From positions 64,001 to 128,000 of the IMG/VR virus record IMGVR_UViG_3300032234_000388: 64,000 nt of DNA, one strand, 5' to 3'. Made by a program: the position numbers and the translations under genes. Positions within the stretch are counted from its first letter, which is position 1; the number at the start of each line of letters is the position of its first letter. The DNA comes from a virus (lineage: Duplodnaviria > Caudoviricetes). Shown piece by piece: positions 31,000 through 49,776 of this stretch. Under the pieces are notes generated by a model. The model saw nothing but the letters and a program-made list of their open reading frames with translations, did not search any database and had not been told where the DNA came from.

Positions 31000-31007
31000 T
31001 ATAAATA
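31000..31007 (+). promoter_or_regulatory. T4-type late promoter TATAAATA for plus-strand oxygenase/halogenase operon
   Basis: Exact TATAAATA, 4 nt before ATG 31012, no SD. Confidence 0.7.
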
Positions 31008-31011
31008 TGTC

Positions 31012-31590
31012 ATGCGAATAGAAAAAGACATCGGAATTTGGGAAAATGTACTCACCTCTGAGGAATGTCAGTCCCTAATAAGTCATTACGAAACACTTAC
31101 AAAGTTAAATCTTACATATTCAAGATTGGAACTTAATGATTCAATATCACATCATAAGGCCGATAGTGCTGCTTTTTTATTAGACTCACAGAGTTTAAAA
31201 ATGACTCCTGACCAATCTATTTTAGGAAATTTTTTAAGAAAATTTTGGGAGTGTTACGGGCAGTACACACAAAAATACAGCGTATTAAACGATGCAGCAA
31301 AACATCGAATACGATCAATGAAACTACAAAAAACATTGCCGGGCGAAGGATATCATATTTGGCATTTTGAATCAGACTCGCCAGAACGAGCAGATCGAAT
31401 CTGCGCATGGGGAATCTATCTTAATAGTATAGAATCTGGCGGAGAGACAGAGTTTTTGTATCAAGGAATTAGGGTGCCTGCAGTGGAAGGAACTTTAGCG
31501 TTATGGCCTGCAGGATTTACGCATACTCACAGAGGGAATCCTCCCCTGTCCGGTGAAAAGTATCTACTTACAGGTTGGGTTGAATTTTAA
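31012..31590 (+). CDS. 2OG-Fe(II) oxygenase (prolyl-hydroxylase-like)
   Basis: WHFE (HxE)...YLN...GGETEF...FTHTHRG...KYLLTGW. Confidence 0.9.
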   Translation: MRIEKDIGIWENVLTSEECQSLISHYETLTKLNLTYSRLELNDSISHHKADSAAFLLDSQSLKMTPDQSILGNFLRKFWECYGQYTQKYSVLNDAAKHRIRSMKLQKTLPGEGYHIWHFESDSPERADRICAWGIYLNSIESGGETEFLYQGIRVPAVEGTLALWPAGFTHTHRGNPPLSGEKYLLTGWVEF

Positions 31591-32207
31591 TGGAACGTCT
31601 TGAATTATTTCCCACTAGTTTTTTTACGTTTAACAATCCAAACATCGATAATGTCGAATTAATAAAAAATCTTCAAAAATATACCGATAAAATGAAACGC
31701 GGTAATATTTTAAGTTCGTTGCATCTGTTACATGATAAGCCAGAACTTTCAGAATTGTTTAATTGGATTAACTCGTGTCTAGAAGAAGTCCGTGTAGTAG
31801 AAAAATATGACTGCGAAAACTTTAAAATTACCAATAGTTGGTTTAATATTGCACTAGCCAATTCTAATATGGCTATTAATTATCATCGACATTCAATGAG
31901 CTTTTTCAGTGGCGTTTATTATCTTACTGAAGGGGCTCCTACTTTTTTTGAAGATCCTGTTCTGCATAGGACACAAGCTCAGATCGAAGTGTTAAGATTT
32001 GAATATGCGCCTACTGAAAAAATTTTTCCCGAACCAGGAAAGTTAGTTATTTTTCCTAGCTGGATGTTTCACTACGCTGCTCCTCATGTAGACAACTTTG
32101 ATCGATATATTATTAGTTTTAATTCCCTACCTTCTGGGTCTATAAACTATAATATAGCAACTGATTCTGTATCAGATATTTCAATAAATTCTAGAGAAAA
32201 AATATAA
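31590..32207 (+). CDS. Putative 2OG-Fe(II) oxygenase (TIGR02466-like, HxH)
   Basis: SWFN...HRHSMSFFSGVYY...LVIFPSWMFH...RYIISFN. Confidence 0.85.
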   Translation: MERLELFPTSFFTFNNPNIDNVELIKNLQKYTDKMKRGNILSSLHLLHDKPELSELFNWINSCLEEVRVVEKYDCENFKITNSWFNIALANSNMAINYHRHSMSFFSGVYYLTEGAPTFFEDPVLHRTQAQIEVLRFEYAPTEKIFPEPGKLVIFPSWMFHYAAPHVDNFDRYIISFNSLPSGSINYNIATDSVSDISINSREKI

Positions 32208-33703
32208 TGGTAAACTCAATATGTATAGTTGGGGGAGGCAACTCAGGATTAATGACTGCCCTTTGGTTAAAAAAACTATTTCCCTACATGTCTGTCTCAC
32301 TGATAAAATCTAAAAACATCGGAACTATCGGAGTTGGTGAAGGAAGCACAGAACACTGGACTGTGTTTTCACAAACTGTAGGAATTAATATTTCTGAGCT
32401 GATAAACGAATGCGGAGCCACTATCAAGGTTGGAATTAAATTTGAAAACTGGCACGGAGATAATACAAGTTATTTTCACAGTGTTCCTGAATTTCTAGCA
32501 ACCATGGACCCGATGACTGGCGCCGCTACTAGTATGATGAGGCTAATAGGAGACAATATTAGTAGTGAAAAATTAGTCTGGGAGTTGCCTATGCAAGGAT
32601 ACGTAAAACATCCTCTCAGTAATTATTATCAGTTTCACTTTGATAGTGAAAAATTAAATGCGTTCTTAGAAAAAAAATGTATAGCAGACGGTGTATCAGT
32701 AATAGATACTGAAATTACAGATGTAAAATTAGATCAAAACGGATTTATTGATTCTATTATTGATAATCAAACTCGATCTTATTCAGCAGATCTCTTTATC
32801 GACAGCAGCGGATTTAAAAGAGTGCTGTCATCTAAGCTAGGTGCTGAATGGGTTGATTGGTCTAAGTATCTACCTATGAACAGTGCTATTGCGTTCCAGA
32901 CTCCATACGAAGAACAACTTCCACCATATACTCTTGCACGAGCAATGAATAGCGGCTGGAACTGGAGAAGCCCGGTACAAGAACGATTTGGTAATGGGTA
33001 TGTTTTTAGCGATCACTTTATTAACGAAACTCAAGCATTAGACGAAATACAAAAATATTTTAAAGAGCCAATTAATATTGGTCGAAAAATAAACTTTGTA
33101 TCTGGAAAAGTCAATAAGGCATGGATCAAGAATTGTATATCAATTGGTCTTAGTAGTAATTTTGTTGAGCCGTTAGAAGCCAGCAGCATTGCTACTACAG
33201 TAAAGCAACTACAGATGTTATTGGGTACAATATGGAATTGGTCTAAGAGCGATACCGGTACTGTTAAAAGATACAATATGTTATTTGATGACATGATGAC
33301 AAACGTTTTAGATTTTATACAATTGCATTATTTTACACAACGCAACGACACTGAGTTTTGGCGGTGGTGTAAAAATGAAATTACTATGACTGACTTTAAT
33401 AAAGAAAACTTAGAAGTATTTAAAACTAACTTTGTTAATCAAATGCTTTTACCAGAAGATGGCATTACAGGTAATTTTAGAATCTATGATTGCTTAAATT
33501 GGATACAAGTCATGCATGGATTAAGAATGTTTGATACTGCTAAAATTAAAGAAATTTATGACAAACATTTTAGTCATCTTAGACAAATAGACGAACAATA
33601 TGCGTCTCAGGCAGATCAAGAGTTGACAGATCAATGGGTAACTTGTAGAGACGCAATTAACTTTGTTAAGAGCTTCAATACTCGGGTAGAATATAAATTA
33701 TGA
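32207..33703 (+). CDS. Flavin-dependent tryptophan halogenase family protein 1
   Basis: GGGNSG, GVGEGS, ATIKVGI (catalytic Lys position), FIDSSGF, WNWRSP, FVEPLEASS. Confidence 0.92.
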   Translation: MVNSICIVGGGNSGLMTALWLKKLFPYMSVSLIKSKNIGTIGVGEGSTEHWTVFSQTVGINISELINECGATIKVGIKFENWHGDNTSYFHSVPEFLATMDPMTGAATSMMRLIGDNISSEKLVWELPMQGYVKHPLSNYYQFHFDSEKLNAFLEKKCIADGVSVIDTEITDVKLDQNGFIDSIIDNQTRSYSADLFIDSSGFKRVLSSKLGAEWVDWSKYLPMNSAIAFQTPYEEQLPPYTLARAMNSGWNWRSPVQERFGNGYVFSDHFINETQALDEIQKYFKEPINIGRKINFVSGKVNKAWIKNCISIGLSSNFVEPLEASSIATTVKQLQMLLGTIWNWSKSDTGTVKRYNMLFDDMMTNVLDFIQLHYFTQRNDTEFWRWCKNEITMTDFNKENLEVFKTNFVNQMLLPEDGITGNFRIYDCLNWIQVMHGLRMFDTAKIKEIYDKHFSHLRQIDEQYASQADQELTDQWVTCRDAINFVKSFNTRVEYKL

Positions 33704-35205
33704 TAACCTCAATATGTATAGTTGGCGGTGGCACTAGCGGGTGTGTTGCTGCTCTAATGATTAAAGAAGCCTATCCTAATATGAATATAACTCTAATAGA
33801 GTCTAGTCAAATTGGTATTATTGGGGTAGGCGAAGGCAGCACAGAGCATTGGAAAAAATTTATAGAACATGTTGGAATTACTGTTCCAGAATTAGTTAGA
33901 GAAGCTGGTGCAACATTTAAAGTAGGAATTAAATTTACCAATTGGCACGGCGACGGCACACACTATTTTCACAGTCTTAGTGAGCAGTACGGAAGTCACT
34001 CTGTAAAATCAGGATTGCCAACTACATGGATGCGAATGATTGCAGAAAATTGGGACCCGTTAAACACTGCATGGGGTCTATCAATAAACAGCCGTCATGT
34101 GGAGCCTTTACATAACATATTAGCTCAATATCACTTTGACACATTTAAACTTAATGAATTTTTACATAAGAAATGTCGTGAAAGAAATATATCTATAATC
34201 GATACTGAGATAGTAGATGTTAAATTAGACGATCAAGGCAATGTTTTAGATTTGATTGATGTAGAATTAAAATCCCATAAACATGATTTTTATATTGACT
34301 GTAGCGGATTTAAAAGAATAATTGGAAGTAAGCTAGGCGCAGAGTGGATTGATTGTCAACATCATTTGCCTATGAATTCTGCATTGGCATTTCCAACTGA
34401 ATACACTGAAGAAATTCCGTCCTATACAGAAGCCACCGCATTAAGTAGCGGGTGGGCGTGGCGTATTCCTACTCAAGAACGCTATGGCAACGGGTATGTA
34501 TTTTGCGACAACTTTATTGACGAAACCAAAGCCTACGACGAAGTACAAAAACATTATAAAGAAGTTTTAAAGATTGAAAAGCCAATAGAGATTGGAAGAA
34601 AAATTAAATTTGGTGCCGGGTATGTTAAAGAATTTTGGTTGAAAAACTGTGTAATGGTTGGCCTAAGCGGAATATTTGTTGAGCCGCTGGAGGCTAGTAG
34701 TATAGGAACTACTATTCAACAGTGTTTTAGATTGCTGCCAAGTTTGGCATTTTATAATAAAAACGAAACTATTACTTCATCAAAGTATAATCGAGATATG
34801 AAAATAGTCAGCGAAAATATTGTAGATTTTATACAACTTCATTATATAACACAACGTCAAGACAGTAAATTCTGGCAGTGGTGTAAAAATGAACTAACTT
34901 TAACAGACTTTAACAATCAGTATCTTGATACATTTAAAGAAAGTTTTCCAAATATTCATTATTTTAATCACCCGTTGCAATTATTTTCTTATTTAAACTT
35001 TACCCAAGTTATGCACGGCCTCCGTCTTTTTAATATTGAAAAAATTAAAAAAATATACGATACACATTTTAGTCACTATACTGACGCTTCAGATAGACTT
35101 ATAAAAGAAAACAACGAATACTGCACTCAACTGCAGACCTATAGTCACAGAGAAGCGTTGAATATGCTAAAGGAACGCGGCCTTGAAGTCAAATACCATT
35201 TCTAA
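33700..35205 (+). CDS. Flavin-dependent tryptophan halogenase family protein 2
   Basis: GGGTSG, ATFKVGI, YIDCSGF, WAWRIP, FVEPLEASS. Confidence 0.92.
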   Translation: MITSICIVGGGTSGCVAALMIKEAYPNMNITLIESSQIGIIGVGEGSTEHWKKFIEHVGITVPELVREAGATFKVGIKFTNWHGDGTHYFHSLSEQYGSHSVKSGLPTTWMRMIAENWDPLNTAWGLSINSRHVEPLHNILAQYHFDTFKLNEFLHKKCRERNISIIDTEIVDVKLDDQGNVLDLIDVELKSHKHDFYIDCSGFKRIIGSKLGAEWIDCQHHLPMNSALAFPTEYTEEIPSYTEATALSSGWAWRIPTQERYGNGYVFCDNFIDETKAYDEVQKHYKEVLKIEKPIEIGRKIKFGAGYVKEFWLKNCVMVGLSGIFVEPLEASSIGTTIQQCFRLLPSLAFYNKNETITSSKYNRDMKIVSENIVDFIQLHYITQRQDSKFWQWCKNELTLTDFNNQYLDTFKESFPNIHYFNHPLQLFSYLNFTQVMHGLRLFNIEKIKKIYDTHFSHYTDASDRLIKENNEYCTQLQTYSHREALNMLKERGLEVKYHF

Positions 35206-36694
35206 AATAGTTATAATCGGAGGAGGAAGTGCAGGTTGGATGACTGCAGCCACTCTAATTTCTTCTTTCCCTGACAAAAATATAACGCTTATTGAAGCTC
35301 CTAATATTCCAATTATAGGAGTTGGCGAAAGTACTACAAATTATATGAGAGAGTGGACCAGCTCTATAGGCCTAAAAGACGAAGACTGGATGCCAGAATG
35401 CGATGCAACGTATAAATTTGGTCTAAAGTTTGTAGACTTTGCAGAAGATGAATTTTATTACCCATTTGGTCAACGGGCCGAATCTACGTGTAATCTAGCA
35501 CACTGGTTTACATATGCCGAGGCAAATAAAATTTCAAACGGCGATTTTGGAAAAGTCTTTTACGATCAACTTCCGGCTATGGAACAGAATCGAATTCCCA
35601 ACAACTTTATTGAGAACGAATCAGGATACCATTTCGATGCTGTTAAGTTTGCAACTTTTCTTAAAGAAAAGTTTGCCAAGCCCAAAGGTGTTATTCATAA
35701 ACAACAAAAAGTCATAGATGTTGTACAGGATGACACTGGAATAAAATCAATAAAATTAGATAGTGGAGAAACTGTAGATGCAGATATCTATTTTGACTGC
35801 ACTGGGTTTTTGGGATTGCTAATCGATAAAACTCTTAAAACTCCGTGGATTAGTTTTCAAGACAAACTTTGTAATAATCGAACTTGGGCTGCAAGAATAC
35901 CATATTCAAACAAAGAAGAACAATTAAAGCCCTACACTACATGCACTGCACTAAGTAGCGGTTGGGTGTGGAATGTTCCGTTATGGAACAGAATCGGAAC
36001 AGGTTATAACTATTGCGATAAATTTATATCTCCAAAGGATGCATTATTAGAATTTAAAACTCACCTAGGAACAATTAGTGAAAATATAGAATTTAGAGAT
36101 ATTAGTTGGCCTACTGGTGTTAGAGAAAAAGTATGGAATAAAAATGTTGTTGCTATTGGCCTAAGTGGTGGGTTTATTGAACCGCTAGAATCTGGCGGAC
36201 TGTATAGTGTACACGAATTTTTAAATGCTTTTTTAGATGTAACAGAAGGGCATAATCGTTGGGACGGTGTTGCCAGAGATAGCTTTAATTGGAAGTGTCG
36301 AGATATTTTTACAAAATTTGCAGACTTTGTAGAATTACATTATACAATGTCTAGAAGAGATGATTCCAACTATTGGAAATGGTACACAAGTAAAGAAAAC
36401 GTTATTGATAATAATTCTATATTAAAACAATTGTTTGATTATCAACATCATAGTCCGTATAGTGTATCAGAATTAAACAACATGTGGTTTGGGTTATCGA
36501 TGTTAGTTGGCGGTTATAAGTATTCTCTTAGAAATCAAAGAAAATTAAAATACTTCACTGAAAAATTTTCAGAATTTAAATTAGCTGATGACATAATAGC
36601 TCGGATACAAACTAGATTAAAAAATTCAGATTTACCCCAAACGCACTATTTGAAAAATATTGATTTTTATGAACATACCTTATACAAAAAATAA
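35183..36694 (+). CDS. Flavin-dependent tryptophan halogenase family protein 3
   Basis: TTG start; GGGSAG, GVGEST, ATYKFGL, WVWNVP, FIEPLESGG. Confidence 0.92.
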   Translation: MKSNTISKIVIIGGGSAGWMTAATLISSFPDKNITLIEAPNIPIIGVGESTTNYMREWTSSIGLKDEDWMPECDATYKFGLKFVDFAEDEFYYPFGQRAESTCNLAHWFTYAEANKISNGDFGKVFYDQLPAMEQNRIPNNFIENESGYHFDAVKFATFLKEKFAKPKGVIHKQQKVIDVVQDDTGIKSIKLDSGETVDADIYFDCTGFLGLLIDKTLKTPWISFQDKLCNNRTWAARIPYSNKEEQLKPYTTCTALSSGWVWNVPLWNRIGTGYNYCDKFISPKDALLEFKTHLGTISENIEFRDISWPTGVREKVWNKNVVAIGLSGGFIEPLESGGLYSVHEFLNAFLDVTEGHNRWDGVARDSFNWKCRDIFTKFADFVELHYTMSRRDDSNYWKWYTSKENVIDNNSILKQLFDYQHHSPYSVSELNNMWFGLSMLVGGYKYSLRNQRKLKYFTEKFSEFKLADDIIARIQTRLKNSDLPQTHYLKNIDFYEHTLYKK

Positions 36695-38216
36695 ATTGGT
36701 TATTGTTGGAGGGGGTAGTGCAGGATGGATGACTGCCTTATATCTAAAGAAACTGCACCCAACATGCGAAATATCAGTCGTAGAAGACCCTGATCGTCCA
36801 CCAATTATTGCTGGCGAAAGTGGTACAATAACCTTTGTTTCTTTTCTTAAAAGTTTGGGAATAGGAATCGACGACTTTGTTCGGCATACCAATGCTACTC
36901 CAAAATTAGGAGGTCGATTTAAAAATTGGAACGGAGTTGGACACGAATTTATTCACGCACTTCAAACAGATATTACTCCATGGCTTGATGAAGTTGACAA
37001 TGACCTAACATCTTTTAGTCAAACAATCGCTGGATTGAATAGAGAACACACGTCTGACAATTATGTTTCAACAATAATAGCCAACGACATACCGTTATCA
37101 AAAGCATTTTATGCTTATCAATTTATTGATCAAAATAAAGTTCCGTTTGGAGGAGACGCTGATTCGTTATCTATTGCTCCAATGTGGCACTTTGAAAGCA
37201 GGGCTGCTGCTGCGTATTTAAAAAATATAGGAATATCTAGAAATATAAAACTAATAGAAGGCAAATACAAATTTTCTAATCAATCGACCTCAGGCGATAT
37301 TTTATCTGTAGTATTAGAAGATGACACAATTGTTGCAGGCGACTGGTTTTTTGACTGCTCTGGATTTGCACGATTATTGCTAGGCGGTGTTTTAAACGAA
37401 CCGTTAATTGACTACTCCAATTTTTTTCCTGCTAGGGCTGTGGTTGCCTGGTGGGACAAAGCTGAACCTTCAGTAACTTCAAATGCTAATGCTATGGAAT
37501 ATGGGTGGTCTTGGAATATAAATCTTAGACATCGATCTGGCAACGGATACATTTACGATCCCGACCACATCAACTTGGACCAAGCTGTGTTAGAAGCAGA
37601 AAAATTTTATGGATATAAAATTGATCCTATTGCTAATTTTAGTTTTACACCGGGTATTATGAAAAATACTTGGAAAAACAATGTTATTGCTGTCGGGTTG
37701 AGCGGTGGTTTTTTAGAACCATTAGAGGCCAATGGGGTGCAAGTTATCATTGATACACTATGGGCAATAGAAGATTTATGGAAGCCAACCATTCAATCTA
37801 ATTTTAAACAACGTCAGGATCTTTTTAATCTACGAGTATTTGCAAATACCGAGGATATACGAGATTTTATATCATTGCATTATAGAGGAAAGCGCAGAGA
37901 TACAGAGTTTTGGAAAAGTCATGCTTATGATAAATTTAGAATACCAACATCACTCAATGACAAACTAGACCAATGGGGCAAGTACTATGCTGGAGAAGCA
38001 TGGGCATTTCCAAGATCAAACGGGTATTCACCAACTGCATGGTTAATGGTTTTGCAAGCACTTGATATATTTGATACTGCTCCGTTAAAGGCTCGCAAAT
38101 CTCAATTGCTAGCTATCGGAAAAACAGCACTAAATAACAACTATAACAGATACAGAGATTATGCTAACTCTTGTTTAACCATAGAAGACTGGTTAAAAAA
38201 CAGCATAAATACATAA
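36669..38216 (+). CDS. Flavin-dependent tryptophan halogenase family protein 4
   Basis: GGGSAG, ATPKLGG, FFDCSGF, WSWNIN, FLEPLEANG; likely ATG 36669. Confidence 0.9.
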   Translation: MNIPYTKNKLVIVGGGSAGWMTALYLKKLHPTCEISVVEDPDRPPIIAGESGTITFVSFLKSLGIGIDDFVRHTNATPKLGGRFKNWNGVGHEFIHALQTDITPWLDEVDNDLTSFSQTIAGLNREHTSDNYVSTIIANDIPLSKAFYAYQFIDQNKVPFGGDADSLSIAPMWHFESRAAAAYLKNIGISRNIKLIEGKYKFSNQSTSGDILSVVLEDDTIVAGDWFFDCSGFARLLLGGVLNEPLIDYSNFFPARAVVAWWDKAEPSVTSNANAMEYGWSWNINLRHRSGNGYIYDPDHINLDQAVLEAEKFYGYKIDPIANFSFTPGIMKNTWKNNVIAVGLSGGFLEPLEANGVQVIIDTLWAIEDLWKPTIQSNFKQRQDLFNLRVFANTEDIRDFISLHYRGKRRDTEFWKSHAYDKFRIPTSLNDKLDQWGKYYAGEAWAFPRSNGYSPTAWLMVLQALDIFDTAPLKARKSQLLAIGKTALNNNYNRYRDYANSCLTIEDWLKNSINT

Positions 38217-38231
38217 TAAAGGAGTTTTATA

Positions 38232-38402
38232 ATGGCAACTTGGAAAATGATTTTACGCAAAGCTGAACCACCCGGAACTTTAGCTGTTGAGGCTGATTTT
38301 TGCGAAGCAGAAAAAAAGGAAGAAGCGGCTAAAATTTTTGAAGAAAGACACGGTGTTGGACGAGTAGTAGCAGGTCCAATGTTAGTTGAGCAACCTAATT
38401 AA
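38232..38402 (+). CDS. 56-aa small protein missed by ORF track
   Basis: MATWKMILRKAEPPGTLAVEADFCEAEKKEEAAKIFEERHGVGRVVAGPMLVEQPN; AAAGGAG SD and TAAATA box at 38206-38211. Confidence 0.75.
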   Translation: MATWKMILRKAEPPGTLAVEADFCEAEKKEEAAKIFEERHGVGRVVAGPMLVEQPN

Positions 38403-39037
38403 TTTTGATTGGAATTTTTTATTAACGATTCCATAGCAGCAATACGTTTTATTTCGCCCTGAACTTCAGGCCTAGCCCAGTCAAAACCTAGGCCTAGTTT
38501 TGGCTTAGAATCCCACTTTAACCAAGCATCAGGTCCGTTAGCATCCACATACTGTAAAAATGCTTGTATTTGTTTAGTTCCTTGAAACGGATCTCTCCAA
38601 TGCATATTCTTTCTGCCACTGTATATTACTAGATCTCCAACATTTAAAAAAATCTCGTGTATCTGTTTATCAGTACCTTGAATTTTTAAAGGCCAATTTG
38701 TATCGTCGTGTGTTATGCACACCGAAATTGTAATTTCACTACTGGGCCTGTCAACGTGTTTTTGTAATTCTGATCCGGTATAGTAAATTCGAGCAAACGA
38801 ATAAGACGGCCACAATTTCATTCCAACTGCTTCTTCAACTAATGGCAATAGTTTAACGCTTAGGGCTTCGAACATCAGAGGCGCATAGCGGGCAAAACTG
38901 TTTTTGCAAAAATCCGATAGGTCCGATTCTGGATATAGTGTTTTGCAAACATCTTCCATCATGTTAAATTCTAATGCTAGAAACTCACAAAGTTCTTGAG
39001 AAACTGCATTTCTAATAATTTTAAAATCTTCGTTCAT
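38399..39037 (-). CDS. 2OG-Fe(II) oxygenase
   Basis: SFARIY...LQKHVDRPSSEIT (HxD)...GDLVIYSG...HWR. Confidence 0.85.
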   Translation of the reverse strand: MNEDFKIIRNAVSQELCEFLALEFNMMEDVCKTLYPESDLSDFCKNSFARYAPLMFEALSVKLLPLVEEAVGMKLWPSYSFARIYYTGSELQKHVDRPSSEITISVCITHDDTNWPLKIQGTDKQIHEIFLNVGDLVIYSGRKNMHWRDPFQGTKQIQAFLQYVDANGPDAWLKWDSKPKLGLGFDWARPEVQGEIKRIAAMESLIKNSNQN

Positions 39038-39600
39038 AATAAGGGCATCAGTGATAAGTTAGCGAATGGGCGTTCTGTATATTCTAAAATTAATTTGTGT
39101 TCTGGAAGACAATGCACATCAAACCCAATTGTAGTTCTATATCCCTCAAACGGTTCTAAAACTTCAACTTTGTGTCGTCTATTTCCAGGACCAAAATAAA
39201 TTTGACCTGTTTTATTTTCTATACTGTAGTTGTCAAACACAGTGTTTGTCTTTTTTGAATCAATACAAATATACCCGTGATAGTCATATGTATGCGTATG
39301 CCAATCTAGCACGCTATCTGCAGTATGATAATTTAACCATGCTTCAAACCATAGAGGTCGAGTGTCACCAAGTTGATTTCTAATTACATTTCTCATTTCT
39401 TTATAAATTTCATAAAATGAAGAGCATGGCGCAGTTAGTGCAAAAATATTGTAGCGATCATACGACCAGGTTGAGTCGGCATTAGGAATTGATGCAAACA
39501 TTCGATTAAAAAGTCGATGTGCTTCGTTAATGTCCTCAAAAATTGTGTTTTGATTGTTAACAATATAATCCGATTGATGTAAAATATAATCCTTGGTCAT
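39034..39600 (-). CDS. Putative 2OG-Fe(II) oxygenase (HxH)
   Basis: AWLN...WHTH...HGY...RHKV...RTTIGFD. Confidence 0.7.
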   Translation of the reverse strand: MTKDYILHQSDYIVNNQNTIFEDINEAHRLFNRMFASIPNADSTWSYDRYNIFALTAPCSSFYEIYKEMRNVIRNQLGDTRPLWFEAWLNYHTADSVLDWHTHTYDYHGYICIDSKKTNTVFDNYSIENKTGQIYFGPGNRRHKVEVLEPFEGYRTTIGFDVHCLPEHKLILEYTERPFANLSLMPLL

Positions 39601-40205
39601 AATATAATTTTTTCTAAATTCATATTAATAACGCATCTATATTTAGAGTCTCGAGCAAAACTTGATGAGTGGTAATATTTGCCTGGGAATATTAAAACTT
39701 TTCCTTTTTTTGGTGTGATTCTTTTTTTGATCGTGAATTTGTTTTCTTTGATTCTTAAAACATCATCTTGTCCAGCATCATATGTATCGTTAGTTTCATT
39801 AAAAATCACAGTGTCACCGTCGCTGTCGTTTACATAGTAAATTGCGTTCCAGTGCGGAAAAAAACTATCAATATGAGGCATATGATGTTCTAGTGTAGAA
39901 CTTTTATTAGGCATGGTTAAATTTGCTCTCATTCGTATTAGCCTATTAAAAGATACTCCGGTTTGACTAGTTAAAGTAAGCACCAAAGGATACACTAACT
40001 GAAAAAAGGGACTTTGTGCTTCGCCATGTTCATAAAAGAAATGATTAAAACCTGATAAATTATTTTCTTGTCCAACAAAACATTGATCACCCGATACCAT
40101 ATTAGGATTAAAAAGCCAAGGAAATTCAAAGCTGGTCATTAAATTTAACAAGTGATCTTGATAATCTTTAGGGATTACATTTTCAATCTCAATAATATCA
40201 TCCAT
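39597..40205 (-). CDS. 2OG-Fe(II) oxygenase
   Basis: PHID...YYVNDSDGDT...PKKGKVLIF...YHSS...RCVINMN. Confidence 0.85.
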   Translation of the reverse strand: MDDIIEIENVIPKDYQDHLLNLMTSFEFPWLFNPNMVSGDQCFVGQENNLSGFNHFFYEHGEAQSPFFQLVYPLVLTLTSQTGVSFNRLIRMRANLTMPNKSSTLEHHMPHIDSFFPHWNAIYYVNDSDGDTVIFNETNDTYDAGQDDVLRIKENKFTIKKRITPKKGKVLIFPGKYYHSSSFARDSKYRCVINMNLEKIIL

Positions 40206-40825
40206 TATACTGCTCTTCCAAAAAAGTTTAAAGTAAGTCTTGAATTATGTTTGGCATTTCCAAAAAATTTATCAGCACTGTGCCAAACTAGCGGACTGTA
40301 CAAAACACAACGATTAAAAACATTATGAACAGTCATATTTTTTTTAAAAAAAGAACGCTGTTCTTCTTTGTGTTTAGCAAAGTTAACACGATGTTCTGGC
40401 AAACTGGTAAATTCTTGAAATTTATAATCTTGGTAAGAGTTATTTGTTCCTGTTGTATTTGTATACAAAATAGTTCCAGAGTTTGGCGCAGGATTTGTAT
40501 TAAGATATATTAGTCCTGCTACATTGTATTCAGGATCGTCATGATGAATCCAGCCGTCTCCATATGATTCGTCTGCTATTCTAAAACTTGTTTCTAATCT
40601 TTGAAAATGTGTGAACCCTTGCAGGTGTTGAATTAATTTTGAAGCCAATGCATGAAATAGATTTAAATTTATTTCGTTTAACGGACTTGAATACTGTCCA
40701 GGAAACATTGGTGTATCGTCGCTATGAAAATCTTGCTTTAATGCAAAATGTCTCCATAATTCGGGTGCTTCTAAAAAATTATCAATAATTTTTGTAGGAA
40801 TATTATTTGATAGTTGCTTTTTCAT
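40205..40825 (-). CDS. Putative 2OG-Fe(II) oxygenase (DUF6445-like)
   Basis: IIDNFL...WIHHDD...AGLIYL...SGT...NVFNRCVLY...WHSA...RLTLNFF. Confidence 0.8.
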   Translation of the reverse strand: MKKQLSNNIPTKIIDNFLEAPELWRHFALKQDFHSDDTPMFPGQYSSPLNEINLNLFHALASKLIQHLQGFTHFQRLETSFRIADESYGDGWIHHDDPEYNVAGLIYLNTNPAPNSGTILYTNTTGTNNSYQDYKFQEFTSLPEHRVNFAKHKEEQRSFFKKNMTVHNVFNRCVLYSPLVWHSADKFFGNAKHNSRLTLNFFGRAV

Positions 40826-41529
40826 ATTGCTCTTGCAAAAAATACTTGTGTTAATCGAGTATCATTTTTTTCTTTTCCAAAAAATGTATTAGCACTATGC
40901 CATGTTCTCGGATCAAAAATAATACAACGATTAAACACACTTTCAATAGTTGTAGTAGGAGTAAAGTGTGCTCGCTGATCTTTTCTATATTTTGTGTGTT
41001 TTTCTCTTTCTTCGTCAGATGCAACTAAAACATCATTCATAAATATTTCGCTGTATACTTCTCCATTAAAATCAGTTTGATTAGAATATAGAGTTGTACC
41101 TGCACCGACTGGTGCGTCAGGATTTAGATATATTAATCCAGCAACTGTAAAATGCGGATCGTCGTCGTGTACCCATCCTTCGCCGTAGGTTTCGTCTATT
41201 AACTGAAATGTTGTTTGTAGTTCTAAAAATTCACTGTATCCATAATCGTTTAAAACATGCATTAATTTTGATGATAGCAATCTAAATAACTCGCTGTCAA
41301 GGTTTTGTAAAAAATCACTACGAACTCCCGGCCAACTTCCTCGATTACCTTTATAAAATTCTAAATCTAATGCAAAGTCTCTCCATAGTTCTGGATTTTC
41401 ATAAAAGTTATCAATTACAATAGTTGGCAAGTACGGATATAAGAATGCATCTTTTAAATTTTTACTCGCAATAAGATCACGACTTCGTTCGTCCATCTTA
41501 AGTAGTGAGTTAATATAGTCTTTATTCAT
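40822..41529 (-). CDS. Putative 2OG-Fe(II) oxygenase (DUF6445-like), paralog of 40205..40825
   Basis: VIDNFY...WPGVRS...WVHDDD...AGLIYL...FNRCIIF...WHSA...RLTQVFF. Confidence 0.8.
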   Translation of the reverse strand: MNKDYINSLLKMDERSRDLIASKNLKDAFLYPYLPTIVIDNFYENPELWRDFALDLEFYKGNRGSWPGVRSDFLQNLDSELFRLLSSKLMHVLNDYGYSEFLELQTTFQLIDETYGEGWVHDDDPHFTVAGLIYLNPDAPVGAGTTLYSNQTDFNGEVYSEIFMNDVLVASDEEREKHTKYRKDQRAHFTPTTTIESVFNRCIIFDPRTWHSANTFFGKEKNDTRLTQVFFARAI

Positions 41530-42103
41530 TTGGTGTTGCTGTAAAATTTATTGTTATAGCGATTCGTTTAGTACACATTTTAGGACACGTACTAGCATGA
41601 TAGTGTTGTCCGTTAAACAACAACACTTTGCCTTTGTCGGGCCTACTTTTATGCATTGGTCGATATTGTTGTGATTTTTCAGTTTCATGAAATATTACAG
41701 TATCGCCGTCTGCATCATTCACATAATATATAGCAGTATAGTGATTGTCCTCGAAGTCCTTGTGAGGCTCGTTGTATTTGTAAGGCATGCTAGGCAATAC
41801 ATATTTGGTGTTTAGTAGGAATCCTGCTCTTACTCTAATTAAACTAGTCATCTTGAGATTTGATTTTTTTAAAATTTCGTCAATTAACGGAGTAAAGAAT
41901 TCTAAATAGGGATTTGAATCATTGTTAGGATGATATATTAAATTGGCAAAACTAGGAGTCGAGTTCTGTGTATCATTGATATAAACGTTGGTAGCATCGT
42001 CTAAAAAATGCCAAGGAAATTTAATATCGGTTAAAAAATTATAAATTTGATTTTGATAATCTTTATCTATAGCATTTAGGATTTCGATTGGTTTAAATGT
42101 CAT
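41522..42103 (-). CDS. 2OG-Fe(II) oxygenase, paralog of 39597..40205
   Basis: Likely start MTFKP at 42103; PHKD...YYVNDADGDT...YHAS...RIAITINF. Confidence 0.85.
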   Translation of the reverse strand: MTFKPIEILNAIDKDYQNQIYNFLTDIKFPWHFLDDATNVYINDTQNSTPSFANLIYHPNNDSNPYLEFFTPLIDEILKKSNLKMTSLIRVRAGFLLNTKYVLPSMPYKYNEPHKDFEDNHYTAIYYVNDADGDTVIFHETEKSQQYRPMHKSRPDKGKVLLFNGQHYHASTCPKMCTKRIAITINFTATPNE

Positions 42104-42812
42104 GATTAATCCTATAAAAATTTCTATCGATGTCGTAGTTTGGTGGATCAGTTGCAAATTTATTCCAGCACGGTATGCTCATTGATAGTCGTTTTTCGTC
42201 TGGGTATGCTACGTGATACATTCTAGATGGGAAATATAAAGCATCGCCTGGCTCAAGCACAACGTCGATTGCCACTGATAAATCCTTTTCGTCAATGCGT
42301 CCATTCATTGTACCAGTTTTATAAAGATAGGAAATTCTATTATTAAATATTTTCCATCTTGTTTTTCCTTCAATTTGAATAACAAAGTTTGCTGGGTAGT
42401 CATCGTGTATAGAAAAAGATTTAGAACCCTTTAATCCGCCGTAGACATGTATAGCTGCATTTACGTTAAACATGCTTTCGAATATTCTTAAAAGCTCTGT
42501 GGTTTTTCTATTATGAAATCCGTAATTCATTATTATAATACTATGACCCTGATGCAATTTTTCAAACATAAATTCTTTGTCTTGAACAAGATTTTCCCAC
42601 ATCCATGCTTTTCGAGATTCTGGAATGTAAGTTTTATTATTGTATTGATCAATCATTTCAAATTTATAAAAATGAGGATTGTTCATACACGCTTCCACAT
42701 CCTGCCAGGTCAGTAGATCCTGAGGATCCTTTAATAATCCTTTGAAAAAATGTGGCTTATCGTCTATTAATAAATTAGTTTCGTTTAGTATGCGTTGGCC
42801 GATATCTATCAT
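42093..42812 (-). CDS. JmjC/cupin_4-type oxygenase (YcfD/ROX-like)
   Basis: SFSIHDDY..NFVIQIEGKTRWKIF...LEPGDALYFPSRMYHVA...RLSMSI. Confidence 0.85.
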   Translation of the reverse strand: MIDIGQRILNETNLLIDDKPHFFKGLLKDPQDLLTWQDVEACMNNPHFYKFEMIDQYNNKTYIPESRKAWMWENLVQDKEFMFEKLHQGHSIIIMNYGFHNRKTTELLRIFESMFNVNAAIHVYGGLKGSKSFSIHDDYPANFVIQIEGKTRWKIFNNRISYLYKTGTMNGRIDEKDLSVAIDVVLEPGDALYFPSRMYHVAYPDEKRLSMSIPCWNKFATDPPNYDIDRNFYRINHDI

Positions 42813-43407
42813 CGTCTGTCCTAATAATTTTTACGTTAAATGAAATGCTAATTCTATCTTCGTCAAGTTCGTTTCTTTCTACGCCATGAGGCAACCAGCC
42901 AGGAAACATAATTAATTTTTGACTTTCTGGCACAAACGACATCGCTGATGCACTCAATGAAGTGAATTGACCAATAGTTGCTTGTGATGCTACGATAAAA
43001 TCTTGCCCGTAGCTTTTATAAAAATTAATATTTCCGTGACCGTGTCGTGCTTTTAAATAAAAAACACCAGAAATAAAACTGTTATCGTGAGTATGTACTG
43101 CATTAGTATGATTTTTGTGATTTATATTAAACCAAAAATTTTCAATATCCACAAAACACAAATCTTCTCGATAACCAAAATCTCGAACACACTGTTCTGC
43201 TTGTTCTAAAATTCGGTCTTCAAGTTGTTTCATTTCTGGATAGGTACCTGCACGAAAGTCTCGGCTTTGCCATCCGCCTTGATTGCTTAATTTTCTTCCA
43301 ACTGGGTCCTGTTCTCTTAATCGATAGCATAGTGCTACCATATCTTCAGTTTTTATTTCGGTGTGTTCCCACCATACCGGTGTAGGAAAATATAAATCTA
43401 TATTCAT
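42775..43407 (-). CDS. Putative 2OG-Fe(II) oxygenase (TIGR02466-like, HxH)
   Basis: FPTP...SNQGGWQS...WFNIN...HTHDNSFISGVFY...FPGWLPHGV...RISISFN. Confidence 0.88.
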   Translation of the reverse strand: MNIDLYFPTPVWWEHTEIKTEDMVALCYRLREQDPVGRKLSNQGGWQSRDFRAGTYPEMKQLEDRILEQAEQCVRDFGYREDLCFVDIENFWFNINHKNHTNAVHTHDNSFISGVFYLKARHGHGNINFYKSYGQDFIVASQATIGQFTSLSASAMSFVPESQKLIMFPGWLPHGVERNELDEDRISISFNVKIIRTDDDRYRPTHTKRN

Positions 43408-44210
43408 AAAAATAGATCCTTGAGCATCAGTGGGTTATTTTTTGGAGATAGGTGTGAAAATGCAAAAGCATGACTCCACCTAAAATCTACAGATGGAGAA
43501 ATATACGCACTATGGCACACATTTGATTTATACATAGTTATAGTTCCTTCAGTTGTGGGAGCATCTCCAACATGTTCAAATCCCCATCTTGTTAATTCTG
43601 CTTCTGTCATATTAAACCATTGAGATGATCTTGTAGGATTTTCAGCTATTGATTTCCATTCGTGATACATTTTATGATTTTCATCTACCTGAAAATCATA
43701 TATTTCATCTTTCATTACTCCGTTATATCTATATAGCTTAGTTGAGCTATCGGCGGTATCATGATTGGTAAACCACAAATTTGCAACCATTCCGTATGAA
43801 TAGTCAATATGTGGTATGCGCCAGCAAGAGATAGGCCTAGATCGATTTTTAAAATAAACGTTTCCCCATTCGTGTATTTCAGGATCCACAATTGGAAGAT
43901 TGACCTGTGTAAGATAAAATTCTTTTATTAAAAAACAAATATCTTTATAAATCCATTCTGGCAAATGTATTGTATCAAATGGATTAGGGTCAAAGTTTTC
44001 TAGATTGTTATTATCTTTTTGTATAGGAAAAGTAGAAACTAAGTTTCTAAAAAGATCAAATCCGTTATCATAAAATGGATTTTCAGCAATCCAGTACCCT
44101 ATGTCTTGATCAAGTTTAACGTATTCGAGTTTCCAATCCTCTAATTTTTTAATTTTTATAATTTTTTTAAAATTATTAGCGTCGGGGTAGCAGGTTTTAA
44201 AATCTATCAT
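43404..44210 (-). CDS. Putative 2OG-Fe(II) oxygenase
   Basis: PHIDY...VANLWF...CHSAY...RWSH. Confidence 0.65.
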   Translation of the reverse strand: MIDFKTCYPDANNFKKIIKIKKLEDWKLEYVKLDQDIGYWIAENPFYDNGFDLFRNLVSTFPIQKDNNNLENFDPNPFDTIHLPEWIYKDICFLIKEFYLTQVNLPIVDPEIHEWGNVYFKNRSRPISCWRIPHIDYSYGMVANLWFTNHDTADSSTKLYRYNGVMKDEIYDFQVDENHKMYHEWKSIAENPTRSSQWFNMTEAELTRWGFEHVGDAPTTEGTITMYKSNVCHSAYISPSVDFRWSHAFAFSHLSPKNNPLMLKDLFL

Positions 44211-44791
44211 TTTATATTAAATGTCATTACTATTCTTTCTTGATCGGTATGATTAATTTGAGTTCTGTGTCGAAGCCAACCTGGAAAAATTATTACATCA
44301 TTGGTATTACATTGTACTTCTTTGTAAAATGATAATTCTGGAATTACTGGAAAATTATGTTTGTGATATTCGAGAGGATCTTTAAACTCAATGTTTCCAG
44401 AATTAGGAGGACACTTAATATAACAACTTACTACAAACGTTGAATGACTATGTGAGTGTTCTAATGTTTCTCCAGATTCTAGATGACGATTAACCCACGA
44501 TTGATGTACTGTTGAATGATTATGAACAAAATCGTATTCTTTTCGAATACCGTTAATTTTTTCTCCTAACCAAAACTGAAAATCAGACAGCTCAACCCAT
44601 GTGTGTGGTTGAAATTTATCATCTAGTGATACTGTGGATATTGCATTTCCCTTCTCTAATAAAGAATTAGTTTTTACTAAATTTAAAATATTATTAATTT
44701 TTGGATATAATATATCCAAATCAAAATCGTAATTAAATTTCCATACTAGAGGAGGAAATAAAAATACCCCGCCATTACTCAGCTGTAACAC
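44207..44791 (-). CDS. Putative 2OG-Fe(II) oxygenase (TIGR02466-like, HxH)
   Basis: SWVN...EHSH...SCY...IEFKDP...FPGWLRHRT...RIVMTFN. Confidence 0.85.
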   Translation of the reverse strand: MLQLSNGGVFLFPPLVWKFNYDFDLDILYPKINNILNLVKTNSLLEKGNAISTVSLDDKFQPHTWVELSDFQFWLGEKINGIRKEYDFVHNHSTVHQSWVNRHLESGETLEHSHSHSTFVVSCYIKCPPNSGNIEFKDPLEYHKHNFPVIPELSFYKEVQCNTNDVIIFPGWLRHRTQINHTDQERIVMTFNIK

Positions 44792-45026
44792 CTATGTCGT
44801 CCTTAAATGTTTCTAAGGCTAGCGTTAATCCCATAATTGCCCCTTCCATTTTAACTACATCTTTGGCTAGTTCTTGTCTTTTGCTAAAGTCGATTGAAGT
44901 GATTCCGTATGGATTAAGTTTTACATTTGCAAATTCTTCTTCGAGTAGTTTAAGTTCGTTATTTGTTTTATCAAGTTCTTGTTGTACCTGTAGTATATTT
45001 TTTTGTAATTTTTCTGCGTAGTTCAT
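44775..45026 (-). CDS. Small coiled-coil hypothetical protein
   Basis: 83 aa heptad pattern; AGGAGAG SD. Confidence 0.6.
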   Translation of the reverse strand: MNYAEKLQKNILQVQQELDKTNNELKLLEEEFANVKLNPYGITSIDFSKRQELAKDVVKMEGAIMGLTLALETFKDDIGVTAE

Positions 45027-45814
45027 AATGCTCTCCTTTTAAACTTTTTTAAAATTTTACTAACTCTGTGCAATCTAGAAGACAGTGTGTCTTTTTCTAA
45101 AATTACACAATTGGCAGCATAATTATATGCTCGTTCTCGTTGCATATCTAATTCGTCAGCATTTTCGATTGTTATGTCGTACTCTGCAAGATTTAAATAT
45201 TTCCTAGGAATAGGAATAAGTTGGCACAGCGGTGTTCCTGCCTTTATCAATGTTGTACTGTTAAGATTTTTCCAAAACATTGGTACATTTAATGTGTGAG
45301 AAAAAATTGGATCTAGTATACCCGTAGCTGCAACAAATCGGTGCTCGTCGTTGTAGGCTACAGGCAATTGAAGAAACACTATATCGTTTGATGCATCGAC
45401 TCTCCACGGAGTTTCTACTTTAATTGTAGTGGCTAAAGTTGTAGTATTATCAATCAAAGGCAACGTCTGCTGAGAGGGGTGCGTAGCAATATAACTTTCA
45501 GTACCTGCTATTCCTTTATCAAAGACAATTGGTTCACGCCAGTTCATCGATATATTATCGCCATTAGTAGTTATTTCAAAATCTGCTGGTGCCGGAATAA
45601 TGAACCCTGTTGATACTAATTTTTTTAAACCAGGACAATTTGAAGTTGCTAACATATGATCCGGATATAGTTCTCTGTTTAAAAATTTTCTATCTAACAT
45701 TGAAGATTTTGTAATTGGAAAAAGATCTATAACACCCGGATATACTGAATAAAATCTAATATAAGATTTCTTTTTAGTTGTCCAACCAAACAGTTTTTTA
45801 CACAGCGTGGTCAT
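45023..45814 (-). CDS. Hypothetical protein within oxygenase island (family shared with 3793..4539)
   Basis: CPG...GFIIPAPADF...PW...GILD...GTPLCQLIP; likely start MTTLCKK. Confidence 0.6.
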   Translation of the reverse strand: MTTLCKKLFGWTTKKKSYIRFYSVYPGVIDLFPITKSSMLDRKFLNRELYPDHMLATSNCPGLKKLVSTGFIIPAPADFEITTNGDNISMNWREPIVFDKGIAGTESYIATHPSQQTLPLIDNTTTLATTIKVETPWRVDASNDIVFLQLPVAYNDEHRFVAATGILDPIFSHTLNVPMFWKNLNSTTLIKAGTPLCQLIPIPRKYLNLAEYDITIENADELDMQRERAYNYAANCVILEKDTLSSRLHRVSKILKKFKRRAL

Positions 45815-47408
45815 CTTTTCCGCCATAAATGTTATCTTTTAAGAACTGATAATGGCTTGGCAATTGTTTTACATGATCAATAACAAAATTTTTATATTCT
45901 TCGTAGGCACGCTTAGTAAATCCCGTTTGTTGATCGTGTAATACATCTGGAATATTTCTAGAATATAAGAGTTCTTTAGTAGATATTGCTCGAACACCAA
46001 GGCCTGCCAAAATAAACATTTGACCGATGCCCTCATGCCAATAGCTTTGATTTAATAAAATATTGCCAACAGTATTAGGATATTGAGCTTGAACCATCAT
46101 ATGCGGGCCCATCATGTCGGGACTGTACTCGTTATATTGTGTACACCATCTCCAATATGGAGTGTCTGTTCTTCCCGAAAACGCATAGTGCATACTAACA
46201 AAATCTCTAAATCTGTCAACTTCTGTAGCTACTGCAAGATTAAATCCATCTTGTTCAATTCTAGTTACATACCCTTTTCTTCGATTAAGAGTTTCTACTA
46301 ATTTAATTATATTTTCGTGAGTTGTTAACAGGCCTGTTGATTCTAAAGGCTCAACAAACCCGTAGCTTAGACCAACACCTACTACGTTTTGATGCCACGC
46401 CCTACGACGTTTTCCGTGTTTAATTATAATATTAAACATTTCTGCATTTTCTGCAAGCTCCGGACTGTGCTTTTCAGCAATGTGTCTTCTAAATTCTCTT
46501 TTAGCATCTTCGTCTGTTACAAATCTACTAGAATACACATAGCCTGTACCAATCCTATTCCACAACGGAATATTCCATACCCAGCCGTTATCTAATGCAT
46601 GACAATCAGTTACGTTATGCATTTCTCGTTCTCTGTCAATATACGGCAATCGACATGCCCATGCTCTATCATTGGCTAAAACTTTACTAAACGGTTGAAA
46701 CTCTTGTCCCATCCATTGTTCTAATAGTTGTGATCTAAAACCAGTACAGTCGATCCAAAGGTCAGATTTTAAAACCTGTGTATCTTCTAACATCACGTGA
46801 GAAAGATTGCCAAGATCGTCTTTTTTATAAGAATGCACTTCGCCAATAATGTGTTTAACACCATTAGGCAATGCAATTTTTTCTTTTAAATATTGTCCAA
46901 ATAACTGCGCATCCATATGATATGCGGTGTCCCAGTCGAAGGAAAAGTTTCTTAATATACCGTTTTCATTTTTGCTCTGTTTATTGTACTTGGCCAGCAT
47001 TGTATTGCCTGTACAATAAAATTCAGCAAATGTTTCTGAGGTATATTCTTCTGGATATTCTGCAGCAAGTCGAGACCATGCTTGCTCGCCTGCCGGTTTA
47101 TCGGTTAGATCCAATCCTCCACTAAACGGATATTCAAAATGTGTTCCGTCTTTGGCTTTAAAATTTGTAAATCTGATAGAATTTTTATAGGTTGCATTAC
47201 ATGCGGCCATCCAATCTTCATCTTTTAAATCTAATAATTTTAAAAATTTGTTAATGTGACCTAGAGTGCTTTCTCCGACTCCGACAGTGCCAATTTTTTT
47301 AGATTCAACTAATGTTATTTCTAAATGAGGACATAGTTTGGCTAGTGCGGCTGCAGTCATCCATCCTGATGATCCACCACCCACTATAGTTACTGTTTTG
47401 TAATGCAT
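45798..47408 (-). CDS. Flavin-dependent tryptophan halogenase family protein 5
   Basis: GGGSSG, GVGEST, ATYKNSI, WIDCTGF, WVWNIP, canonical FVEPLESTG. Confidence 0.93.
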   Translation of the reverse strand: MHYKTVTIVGGGSSGWMTAAALAKLCPHLEITLVESKKIGTVGVGESTLGHINKFLKLLDLKDEDWMAACNATYKNSIRFTNFKAKDGTHFEYPFSGGLDLTDKPAGEQAWSRLAAEYPEEYTSETFAEFYCTGNTMLAKYNKQSKNENGILRNFSFDWDTAYHMDAQLFGQYLKEKIALPNGVKHIIGEVHSYKKDDLGNLSHVMLEDTQVLKSDLWIDCTGFRSQLLEQWMGQEFQPFSKVLANDRAWACRLPYIDREREMHNVTDCHALDNGWVWNIPLWNRIGTGYVYSSRFVTDEDAKREFRRHIAEKHSPELAENAEMFNIIIKHGKRRRAWHQNVVGVGLSYGFVEPLESTGLLTTHENIIKLVETLNRRKGYVTRIEQDGFNLAVATEVDRFRDFVSMHYAFSGRTDTPYWRWCTQYNEYSPDMMGPHMMVQAQYPNTVGNILLNQSYWHEGIGQMFILAGLGVRAISTKELLYSRNIPDVLHDQQTGFTKRAYEEYKNFVIDHVKQLPSHYQFLKDNIYGGKDDHAV

Positions 47409-47450: not shown

Positions 47451-47456
47451 TATTTA
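47451..47456 (-). promoter_or_regulatory. TAAATA late-type box heading the minus-strand halogenase/oxygenase operon
   Basis: TAAATA 42 nt upstream of ATG 47408, AAGGAA SD; lies just downstream of a terminator. Confidence 0.55.
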
Positions 47457-47476
47457 GCTACTGTTTTTAGAGAGGT

Positions 47477-47508
47477 AAAAAAAAGGTGCCTATAATAAAG
47501 CACCTTTT
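47477..47508 (-). terminator. Intrinsic terminator ending the fibre operon
   Basis: AAAAGGTGC/GCACCTTTT stem; 8-T run on minus strand. Confidence 0.75.
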
Positions 47509-48898: not shown

Positions 48899-48910
48899 AT
48901 TTTTCCTAGA

Positions 48911-49768: not shown

Positions 49769-49776
49769 AGTTATTC

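Follow-up and report, generated by a model that had tools for sequence, protein, structure and literature searches.

A 64,000-nucleotide stretch of viral DNA (hereafter the window; positions 64001-128000 of the 198,723-bp IMG/VR virus record IMGVR_UViG_3300032234_000388) carries an island of halogenase and oxygenase-type genes at positions 31012-47408. T4-like cyanomyoviruses have a halogenase/dioxygenase cluster, typified by Syn9 gp40-gp54 and known since 2010, of which this island is an enlarged version. It is tied physically, and probably transcriptionally, to a fibre-tip module. New here are the fixed order of tip, gp40-like, halogenase and oxygenase genes, the late-type box upstream, and a second operon that is common in relatives. 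A sequence-only reading of the same DNA had singled out the island as unusual; it is instead a known and widespread cyanomyovirus module. The window encodes T4-like structural proteins (tail sheath, baseplate, fibres) and its nearest isolates are Kyanoviridae cyanomyoviruses; the source is an uncultured marine T4-like cyanophage.

The island consists of two convergent operons with overlapping or closely packed open reading frames (ORFs), one on the plus strand (31012-38402, 7 ORFs) and one on the minus strand (47408-38399, 13 ORFs). Together they encode 5 flavin-dependent halogenases, 12 oxygenase-type proteins of the cupin/double-stranded beta-helix (DSBH) fold and 3 other proteins. The plus operon begins with a prolyl-4-hydroxylase (P4H)-like 2-oxoglutarate (2OG) oxygenase and a PF13759 cupin, followed by four PF04820 halogenases of 498, 501, 503 and 518 amino acids (aa) and a 56-aa ORF. 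The minus operon starts with a 536-aa halogenase, a 267-aa protein and an 83-aa protein, after which come ten cupin/DSBH proteins (~190-270 aa). The guanine + cytosine (GC) fraction per gene is 0.30-0.385 in the island (0.41 in the 56-aa ORF) versus 0.37-0.48 in the flanks, where a 243-aa fibre-like gene on the left has 0.37 and the remaining genes 0.39-0.48. Fibre-type genes border the island on the left and on the right. Flavin_Reduct, PP-binding and AMP-binding domains gave zero matches across the whole 198.7-kb record. On each of these points, the convergent operons, the AT-richness, the position between fibre genes and the lack of a scaffold enzyme or flavin reductase, the sequence-only reading was right. 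The genes of the island are the following.

31012-31590, plus strand: 192-aa prolyl-4-hydroxylase-like 2OG oxygenase (PF13640, 33.5 bits; cut-off 27)
31590-32207, plus strand: 205-aa cupin oxygenase (PF13759; HxH...H)
32207-33703, plus strand: 498-aa flavin-dependent halogenase, 49% identical to its 501-aa neighbour
33700-35205, plus strand: 501-aa flavin-dependent halogenase of the P-SSM2/S-H38 PrnA type (<40% identity)
35183-36694, plus strand: 503-aa flavin-dependent halogenase, nearest to Syn9 gp41 (45%)
36660-38216, plus strand: 518-aa flavin-dependent halogenase, the most divergent, with WSWNIN instead of WxWxIP
38232-38402, plus strand: 56-aa small protein, last gene of the halogenase operon, 87% identical to an ORF of relative L007
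38399-39037, minus strand: 212-aa oxygenase (HxD...H; Syn9 gp54 type)
39034-39600, minus strand: 188-aa cupin (Syn9 gp47 type) with invariant H101, H103, H143 and R155
39597-40205, minus strand: 202-aa 2OG oxygenase (HxD...H; Syn9 gp53 type)
40205-40825, minus strand: 206-aa oxygenase-fold protein (DUF6445; Syn9 gp52 type)
40822-41529, minus strand: 235-aa DUF6445 paralogue, 43% identical to its 206-aa neighbour (Syn9 gp52 type)
41522-42157, minus strand: 211-aa 2OG oxygenase (PF13640; S-CREM1 ORF77 type)
42093-42812, minus strand: 239-aa JmjC protein of the MINA/NO66 clade (PF08007; Syn9 gp49 type), JmjC core only
42775-43407, minus strand: 210-aa cupin oxygenase (PF13759, HxH...H; Syn9 gp48 type)
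43404-44210, minus strand: 268-aa oxygenase-fold protein (HxD...H; Syn9 gp46 type; phrog_1644, without a Pfam hit)
44207-44791, minus strand: 194-aa cupin oxygenase (PF13759; Syn9 gp45 type)
44775-45026, minus strand: 83-aa gp44-like protein with a near-invariant KLNPYGITSIDF..RQ motif
45023-45826, minus strand: 267-aa gp43-like dUTPase-fold protein (DUF6065-like) with an invariant Cys64 and without a motif-5 arm
45798-47408, minus strand: 536-aa flavin-dependent halogenase, VirX1 orthologue (Syn9 gp42 type; PDB 6qgm, E 8.6e-201)

Based on tblastn and annotation, the minus operon corresponds gene by gene, and in colinear order, to Syn9 gp40-gp54 and S-CREM1 ORF68-80. The Syn9 neighbourhood was described by Iyer, Abhiman, de Souza and Aravind in 2010 as ten tandem dioxygenases, among them the MINA/NO66 homologue gp49, that represent five or more families, together with two tryptophan halogenases and a dUTPase-fold protein, and its authors read it as a cluster for the synthesis of halogenated secondary metabolites (PMC2938197). 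The minus operon of the window likewise encodes ten mutually distant dioxygenases, one of them an NO66-like JmjC protein, as well as a Trp-type halogenase and a dUTPase-fold protein with a conserved Cys. Shared with Syn9/Syn10 and S-CREM1 are the gp40-like gene, the VirX1-type halogenase, the dUTPase-fold gp43, gp44 and the distinct dioxygenases including the MINA/NO66-clade JmjC protein. The minus-operon genes show 30-69% amino-acid identity to these phages, and the cluster is placed after Gly-rich fibre-tip genes. Unlike the Syn9 cluster, the window adds a second convergent operon (four halogenases, two oxygenases and the 56-aa ORF), its gp52-type gene is duplicated, its gp47-type gene has moved, and its promoter box lies after the gp40-like gene, not before it. 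Megablast of the island against phage isolates matched nothing. Iyer et al. 2010 also describe bacterial operons in which 2OG dioxygenases are paired with Gly-rich proteins of the tail-collar or collagen-like kind. These operons resemble the island in that their oxygenases adjoin Gly-rich or fibre-like genes, and those Gly-rich or phage-fibre-like proteins have been proposed as the oxygenase substrates (PMC2938197). They differ in carrying sulfotransferases and no flavin halogenases, and the substrates there are proposals too.

The link to the fibre genes involves these features in the window, together with a box ahead of the plus operon.

48044-50628, minus strand: three Gly/His-rich fibre-tip paralogues of 283-285 aa (PF21722, phrog_863)
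47529-48026, minus strand: 165-aa gp40-like protein, between the tip genes and the halogenase, with the tail PAW(K/R)RYPGW
47481-47508, minus strand: terminator-like hairpin and T-run after the gp40-like gene
47451-47457, minus strand: CTAAATA late-type box, 43 nucleotides (nt) upstream of the ATG of the 536-aa halogenase and just past the hairpin
31000-31007, plus strand: TATAAATA box, ending 4 nt before the first plus-operon ATG

Searched with a gp43-like profile, IMG/VR yielded 380 relatives, and the best 80 loci, which form 33 clusters at 90% identity and are the closest relatives (44-77% identity), were annotated with custom hidden Markov models. Six isolate genera (Syn9, S-CREM1, S-RIM44, Sf-FP1, P-TIM40 and S-WAM1) show one order: a large fibre gene, 2-3 tip paralogues (PF21722, phrog_863), a gp40-like gene (~160 aa), one or more halogenases, the gp43-like gene and the oxygenases. 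In the 80 IMG/VR loci, too, tip genes, gp40-like gene, halogenase and oxygenases always come in this sequence. The gp43-like gene follows the halogenase in 80/80 IMG/VR loci and in five of the six isolate genera (none was found in S-WAM1). Wherever at least 700 nt of upstream sequence is available, the gp40-like gene precedes the first halogenase (72/72 loci); where 3.4 kb or more is available, 60 of 61 loci have at least two tip genes. gp40-like genes occur in 20 isolate records and adjoin the VirX1-type halogenase in 7/7 of those compared and in all IMG/VR loci. The convergent halogenase operon was found in 51 of the 59 loci with at least 9 kb downstream, so the two-operon layout is common among uncultured relatives; 43 of the 59 also have a homologue of the 56-aa ORF. 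The fibre side is constant, whereas on the downstream side Syn9 has small early-type ORFs, S-RIM44 and Sf-FP1 have neck and terminase genes, and other lineages have the second operon. In S-RIM44 and Sf-FP1 the cluster is co-oriented, with fibre genes on one side and neck/terminase genes on the other.

The accepted late promoter in cyanomyoviruses is NATAAATA (PMC2984593). In the window, 16 of 51 copies of TAAATA lie no more than 60 nt upstream of same-strand starts, a region that makes up 2.6% of the sequence (p=1.5e-13); for permuted hexamers the fraction upstream of starts is only 4-16%. Late-type boxes had been proposed ahead of both operons, with late expression as the consequence. Both boxes are present, and the position of the minus-operon box is conserved among relatives: a box precedes the first halogenase or the gp40-like gene in 71/73 IMG/VR loci and in 5/6 isolates. 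Ahead of the plus operon, however, just 4 nt separate the TATAAATA box from the ATG, and four relatives (L092-L095) have no such box upstream of this operon. A promoter role for the plus-operon box is doubtful, and late expression is therefore reasonable for the minus operon only, the timing of the plus operon being doubtful. In three of these four relatives (L092, L093 and L095) the place of TATAAATA is taken by a GATATATAGT-like element, ~25-35 nt ahead of the operon that corresponds to the plus operon. ATATATAGT, found upstream of the plus operon of relatives, is not enriched within the window. Six genes of the window (at 1281, 10962, 13347, 17623, 19736 and 31001) have an NTAAATA box that ends 5-6 nt before the ATG, which suggests either that their late mRNAs are leaderless or that this motif belongs to the start context and differs from the boxes at -18 to -47.

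The five proteins that had been assigned to the tryptophan-halogenase family all belong there. They match PF04820 (Trp_halogenase) at E 4e-85 to 4e-111 and 287-373 bits (cut-off 21 bits), and are exactly the PF04820 halogenases of the 198.7-kb record. GGGxxG, the catalytic Lys, WxW and F-x-EPLE are retained by all five, and the flavin-binding G10-G12 and G15 as well as K75 (the equivalent of PrnA K79; residues numbered as in the 536-aa protein) show no variation. In the WxWxIP motif, WxW is kept in 5/5 and I/V-P in 3/5, the other two reading WNWRSP and WSWNIN. The five are apparently intact, with predicted halogenase activity. With pairwise identities of 27-49%, they are ancient paralogues rather than products of recent duplication. 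The alignment of the 536-aa protein with VirX1, the Syn10 enzyme (PDB 6qgm), is full-length, and the protein is 56% identical to the Syn9/Syn10 gene and retains the catalytic Lys and Glu motifs; it is a VirX1 orthologue. The other four, in contrast, are just 27-38% identical to VirX1. VirX1 is reportedly trimeric with a large open active site, and halogenates many small aromatics in vitro (PMC8407142).

The earlier count of twelve oxygenases is right at the level of fold and motif, with an HxD/E...H metal site in eight and HxH...H in four. However, just six of the twelve pass a Pfam 2OG/JmjC cut-off, two further ones match DUF6445, and the use of 2OG is predicted. The HxH...H set is of the PF13759 type (31590-32207, 39034-39600, 42775-43407 and 44207-44791, the 188-aa member being without a Pfam hit), and its cofactor chemistry may differ from that of classical 2OG enzymes. 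Mutual identity of the oxygenases is at most 32%, except for one DUF6445 pair at 43%. The four invariant residues of the 188-aa family hold across 44 sequences. An HxA motif, which would have pointed to a radical halogenase, was considered for this protein but discarded, since H92 varies and it is H101-x-H103...H143 that is invariant.

The 239-aa JmjC protein is nearest to the histidyl hydroxylase NO66 (E 2.6e-9), and the matches, confined to residues 105-213, are to the JmjC core of proteins that are 370-490 aa long. It shares this core and the HxD...H triad with the ribosomal oxygenases NO66, MINA53 and YcfD but lacks their dimerisation and winged-helix domains, and we rejected an assignment as a ribosomal oxygenase. 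Nearest to the 192-aa protein is the prolyl 4-hydroxylase of Bacillus anthracis (E 9e-6), a bacterial collagen-type P4H. PHROG calls the 212-aa family (phrog_2954) 'ferrochelatase', and a 'hypothetical with ferrochelatase domain' also appears in Sullivan 2010; this label is probably mistaken, because the 212-aa sequence has an HxD...H motif and a weak AlkB-family match (19 bits). No island oxygenase passes an AlkB or TET/JBP threshold. Oxygenases of this kind are numerous in other cyanophages, with ten 2OG oxygenases in S-CREM1 and 24 in S-SCSM1 (PMC9964418), and they occur in 14/16 cyanomyoviruses (PMC3037559). An ofd1-like 2OG oxygenase (ORF269) is present in the CsCl-purified virion proteome of the T4-like cyanophage S-SCSM2R (PMC12801897), which fits late expression of these enzymes at high levels.

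The remaining three genes had been listed as unknowns. They are indeed three other genes, but the 267-aa gp43-like protein has a recognizable fold, and the 83-aa and 56-aa ORFs are, judging from their conservation, real genes. Independently of the 2010 description, an AlphaFold model of the gp43-like protein (pLDDT 88) matches trimeric dUTPases (Foldseek prob 1.0, E 7e-5), and the top eleven VIA-align matches are all dUTPases (Z 7.4-9.9). In a profile search a viral dUTPase ranks first but is not significant (E 0.92), with weak alignment of a motif-3-like segment (GILDPxY) and a motif-4-like segment (AGTPLCQ). The C-terminus is helical, and since the Gly-rich motif-5 arm is missing, the protein has a dUTPase fold but is not a dUTPase. 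C64 is invariant across 38 sequences. The gene comes directly after the VirX1-type halogenase, with overlapping ORFs, in 14/14 isolate records that carry it. A scan of bacterial genome contigs with the gp43-like profile yielded 3 loci only (L009, L010 and L011), all apparently phage DNA within bacterial assemblies. L010 is a 188,235-bp contig of a Flavobacteriia assembly (Nonlabens xiamenensis NZ_RMVE01000006.1) whose gp43-like gene has 35% identity; the contig probably represents DNA of a cyanophage that was binned with bacterial sequence. In the gp44-like protein, the KLNPYGITSIDF..RQ motif is central, between two helices, and is at least 95% conserved among 52 unique sequences. The gene is absent from four isolate genera that retain the enzymes (S-RIM44, Sf-FP1, P-TIM40 and S-WAM1). 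The 56-aa ORF had zero matches in phage isolates, and its Trp is frequently Tyr in relatives.

What could these enzymes act on? The sequence-only reading had pointed to fibre proteins, and modification of fibre or other phage proteins is possible; it is the reading that we tentatively prefer. Its most specific form is somewhat unlikely: a late-expressed tailoring battery that hydroxylates and halogenates receptor-binding, Gly/His-rich fibre-tip adhesins, with a halogenase copy number of 1-5 tuning adhesin chemistry and host range. The minus operon would be transcribed late, alongside the fibre genes. Using host-supplied FADH2 (reduced flavin adenine dinucleotide), 2-oxoglutarate, O2 and seawater halide, the enzymes would hydroxylate and halogenate side chains on phage-encoded proteins. 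The Gly/His-rich trimeric tip adhesins would be the likeliest targets and the small cluster-encoded proteins less likely ones. Each distinct enzyme would act on its own residue type or site, and the second convergent halogenase operon could contribute extra halogenation specificities. A phage-protein target is favoured by the invariant fibre-side linkage and the late box, by the resemblance of two enzymes to protein hydroxylases (NO66 and the B. anthracis P4H), by the trimeric state and open active site reported for VirX1 (PMC8407142), and by the lack of a scaffold-making enzyme in the genome.

We found no literature that links phage halogenases to fibre proteins, and several observations weigh against modification of phage proteins. 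The phage cluster has been published as one for metabolite synthesis, and bacterial relatives of the gp52-type dioxygenase and the halogenase sit with TonB receptors and peptide synthetases (PMC2938197). The expectation that enzymes and fibres co-vary did not hold for the JmjC gene and the histidine motif of the tip proteins: JmjC and NHQxH occur together in 56 loci, the motif without JmjC in 3 and JmjC without the motif in 2, and GHPQGG.F.HNHQ.H persists in loci without a JmjC gene. Related halogenases adjoin recombination genes in S-B64 and S-H35, and lie at ~172 kb in S-RIM44. The plus-operon box, as noted above, is missing in four relatives. Because the 80 loci are the closest relatives, their shared gene order may be inherited and not selected, and the chemistry of four of the 'oxygenases' is uncertain because HxH...H replaces the 2OG facial triad.

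The main rival is secondary-metabolite tailoring, in which the enzymes would act one after another to hydroxylate and halogenate amino acids in free form, or else small peptides or metabolites made by the host, and an organohalogen (e.g. antibiotic- or siderophore-like) would be released during infection or at lysis. This is the proposal of Iyer et al. 2010, made by analogy with cephamycin-type multi-dioxygenase pathways, and it draws on bacterial neighbourhoods that combine gp52/gp54-type dioxygenases and Trp halogenases with TonB receptors and nonribosomal peptide synthetases (PMC2938197). The activity of VirX1 on many small aromatics fits it, as do twelve mutually distant oxygenases, which look like a multi-step pathway. 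However, synthetases, carriers, transporters and reductases are all absent from the 198.7-kb record, and the late-type promoter and invariant fibre-side linkage speak against this reading as well. Nor are marine picocyanobacterial hosts known to provide scaffolds of this kind. We regard metabolite tailoring as rather improbable. A system resembling those for ribosomally synthesized and post-translationally modified peptides (RiPPs), with an island small protein as the decorated precursor, could build on the conserved gp44-like motif KLNPYGITSIDF, which is rich in hydroxylatable residues, on the gp40-like tail PAW(K/R)RYPGW, invariant within its subfamily, or on the 56-aa ORF, conserved and terminal in the halogenase operon. 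Against it, the four genera named above keep the enzymes without gp44 and without a conserved gp40 tail, and the Trp of the 56-aa ORF is often replaced by Tyr. In addition, Pfam detected no protease, RiPP recognition element or exporter domain among the island proteins, and a RiPP-like system is quite unlikely.

It is equally hard to credit that the island serves host manipulation, by hydroxylation of host ribosomal proteins, translation factors or envelope proteins, or by a drain on 2-oxoglutarate that steers NtcA-dependent nitrogen-stress signalling. Sullivan et al. 2010 proposed modulation of 2OG by cyanophage 2OG oxygenases, and the clade of the JmjC protein is that of the ribosomal oxygenases. 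However, draining 2OG needs no twelve distinct, individually conserved enzymes and five halogenases, a late-type promoter is a poor fit to host takeover, and the 239-aa JmjC protein is a core only. Least probable, indeed very unlikely, is a role in nucleotide or DNA modification or repair, with the dUTPase-fold protein binding a pyrimidine nucleotide for the halogenase and oxygenases, or with the oxygenases repairing alkylated DNA. The fold of the gp43-like protein with its motif-3-like and motif-4-like segments, and the overlap of its gene with the VirX1-type halogenase ORF in 14 isolate records, are compatible with such a role. DNA repair was suggested by Weigele et al., as cited elsewhere, and the 212-aa protein has its weak AlkB-family match. 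Yet the motif-5 arm is absent and the dUTPase sequence match not significant, the AlkB and TET/JBP thresholds are not reached, S-WAM1 keeps a halogenase without gp43-like, and late timing is a poor fit to precursor modification.

VirX1 is used as a biocatalyst, and viral genes for halogenases and 2OG-type oxygenases are very common in marine metagenomes. Linkage to the fibre-tip genes, found in all relatives examined (no fewer than six isolate genera and 33 clusters of metagenomic loci), and the late-type promoter narrow the search for the role of viral halogenases. If modification of adhesins by the island enzymes is real, it would reveal what VirX1-type viral halogenases naturally act on, besides being the first case of halogenation in a virion protein and a new phage route to diversified receptor binding. 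If the enzymes do not modify adhesins, the metabolite hypothesis gains weight.

On the fibre side, a search of PDB sequences with the tip protein matched nothing. The AlphaFold2 model of the gp40-like protein (pLDDT 74) matches no known fold convincingly; a fibre chain of cyanophage Pam3 comes closest (Z 3.8), and Atlas leads to tail-assembly chaperones score only 0.85; the protein is possibly a fibre chaperone. Its C-terminal 15 residues carry the tail PAW(K/R)RYPGW(K)GY, in which W153, R155, G158 and W159 are invariant among 32 relatives (56-87% identity); the tail is not conserved in the S-RIM44, Sf-FP1, P-TIM40 and S-WAM1 genera. This Trp-rich exposed tail is encoded immediately before a Trp-type halogenase. 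In one relative (L008:5204-6018), four short ORFs stand in place of the first of the three tip paralogues, and this tip gene may be decayed or mis-assembled.

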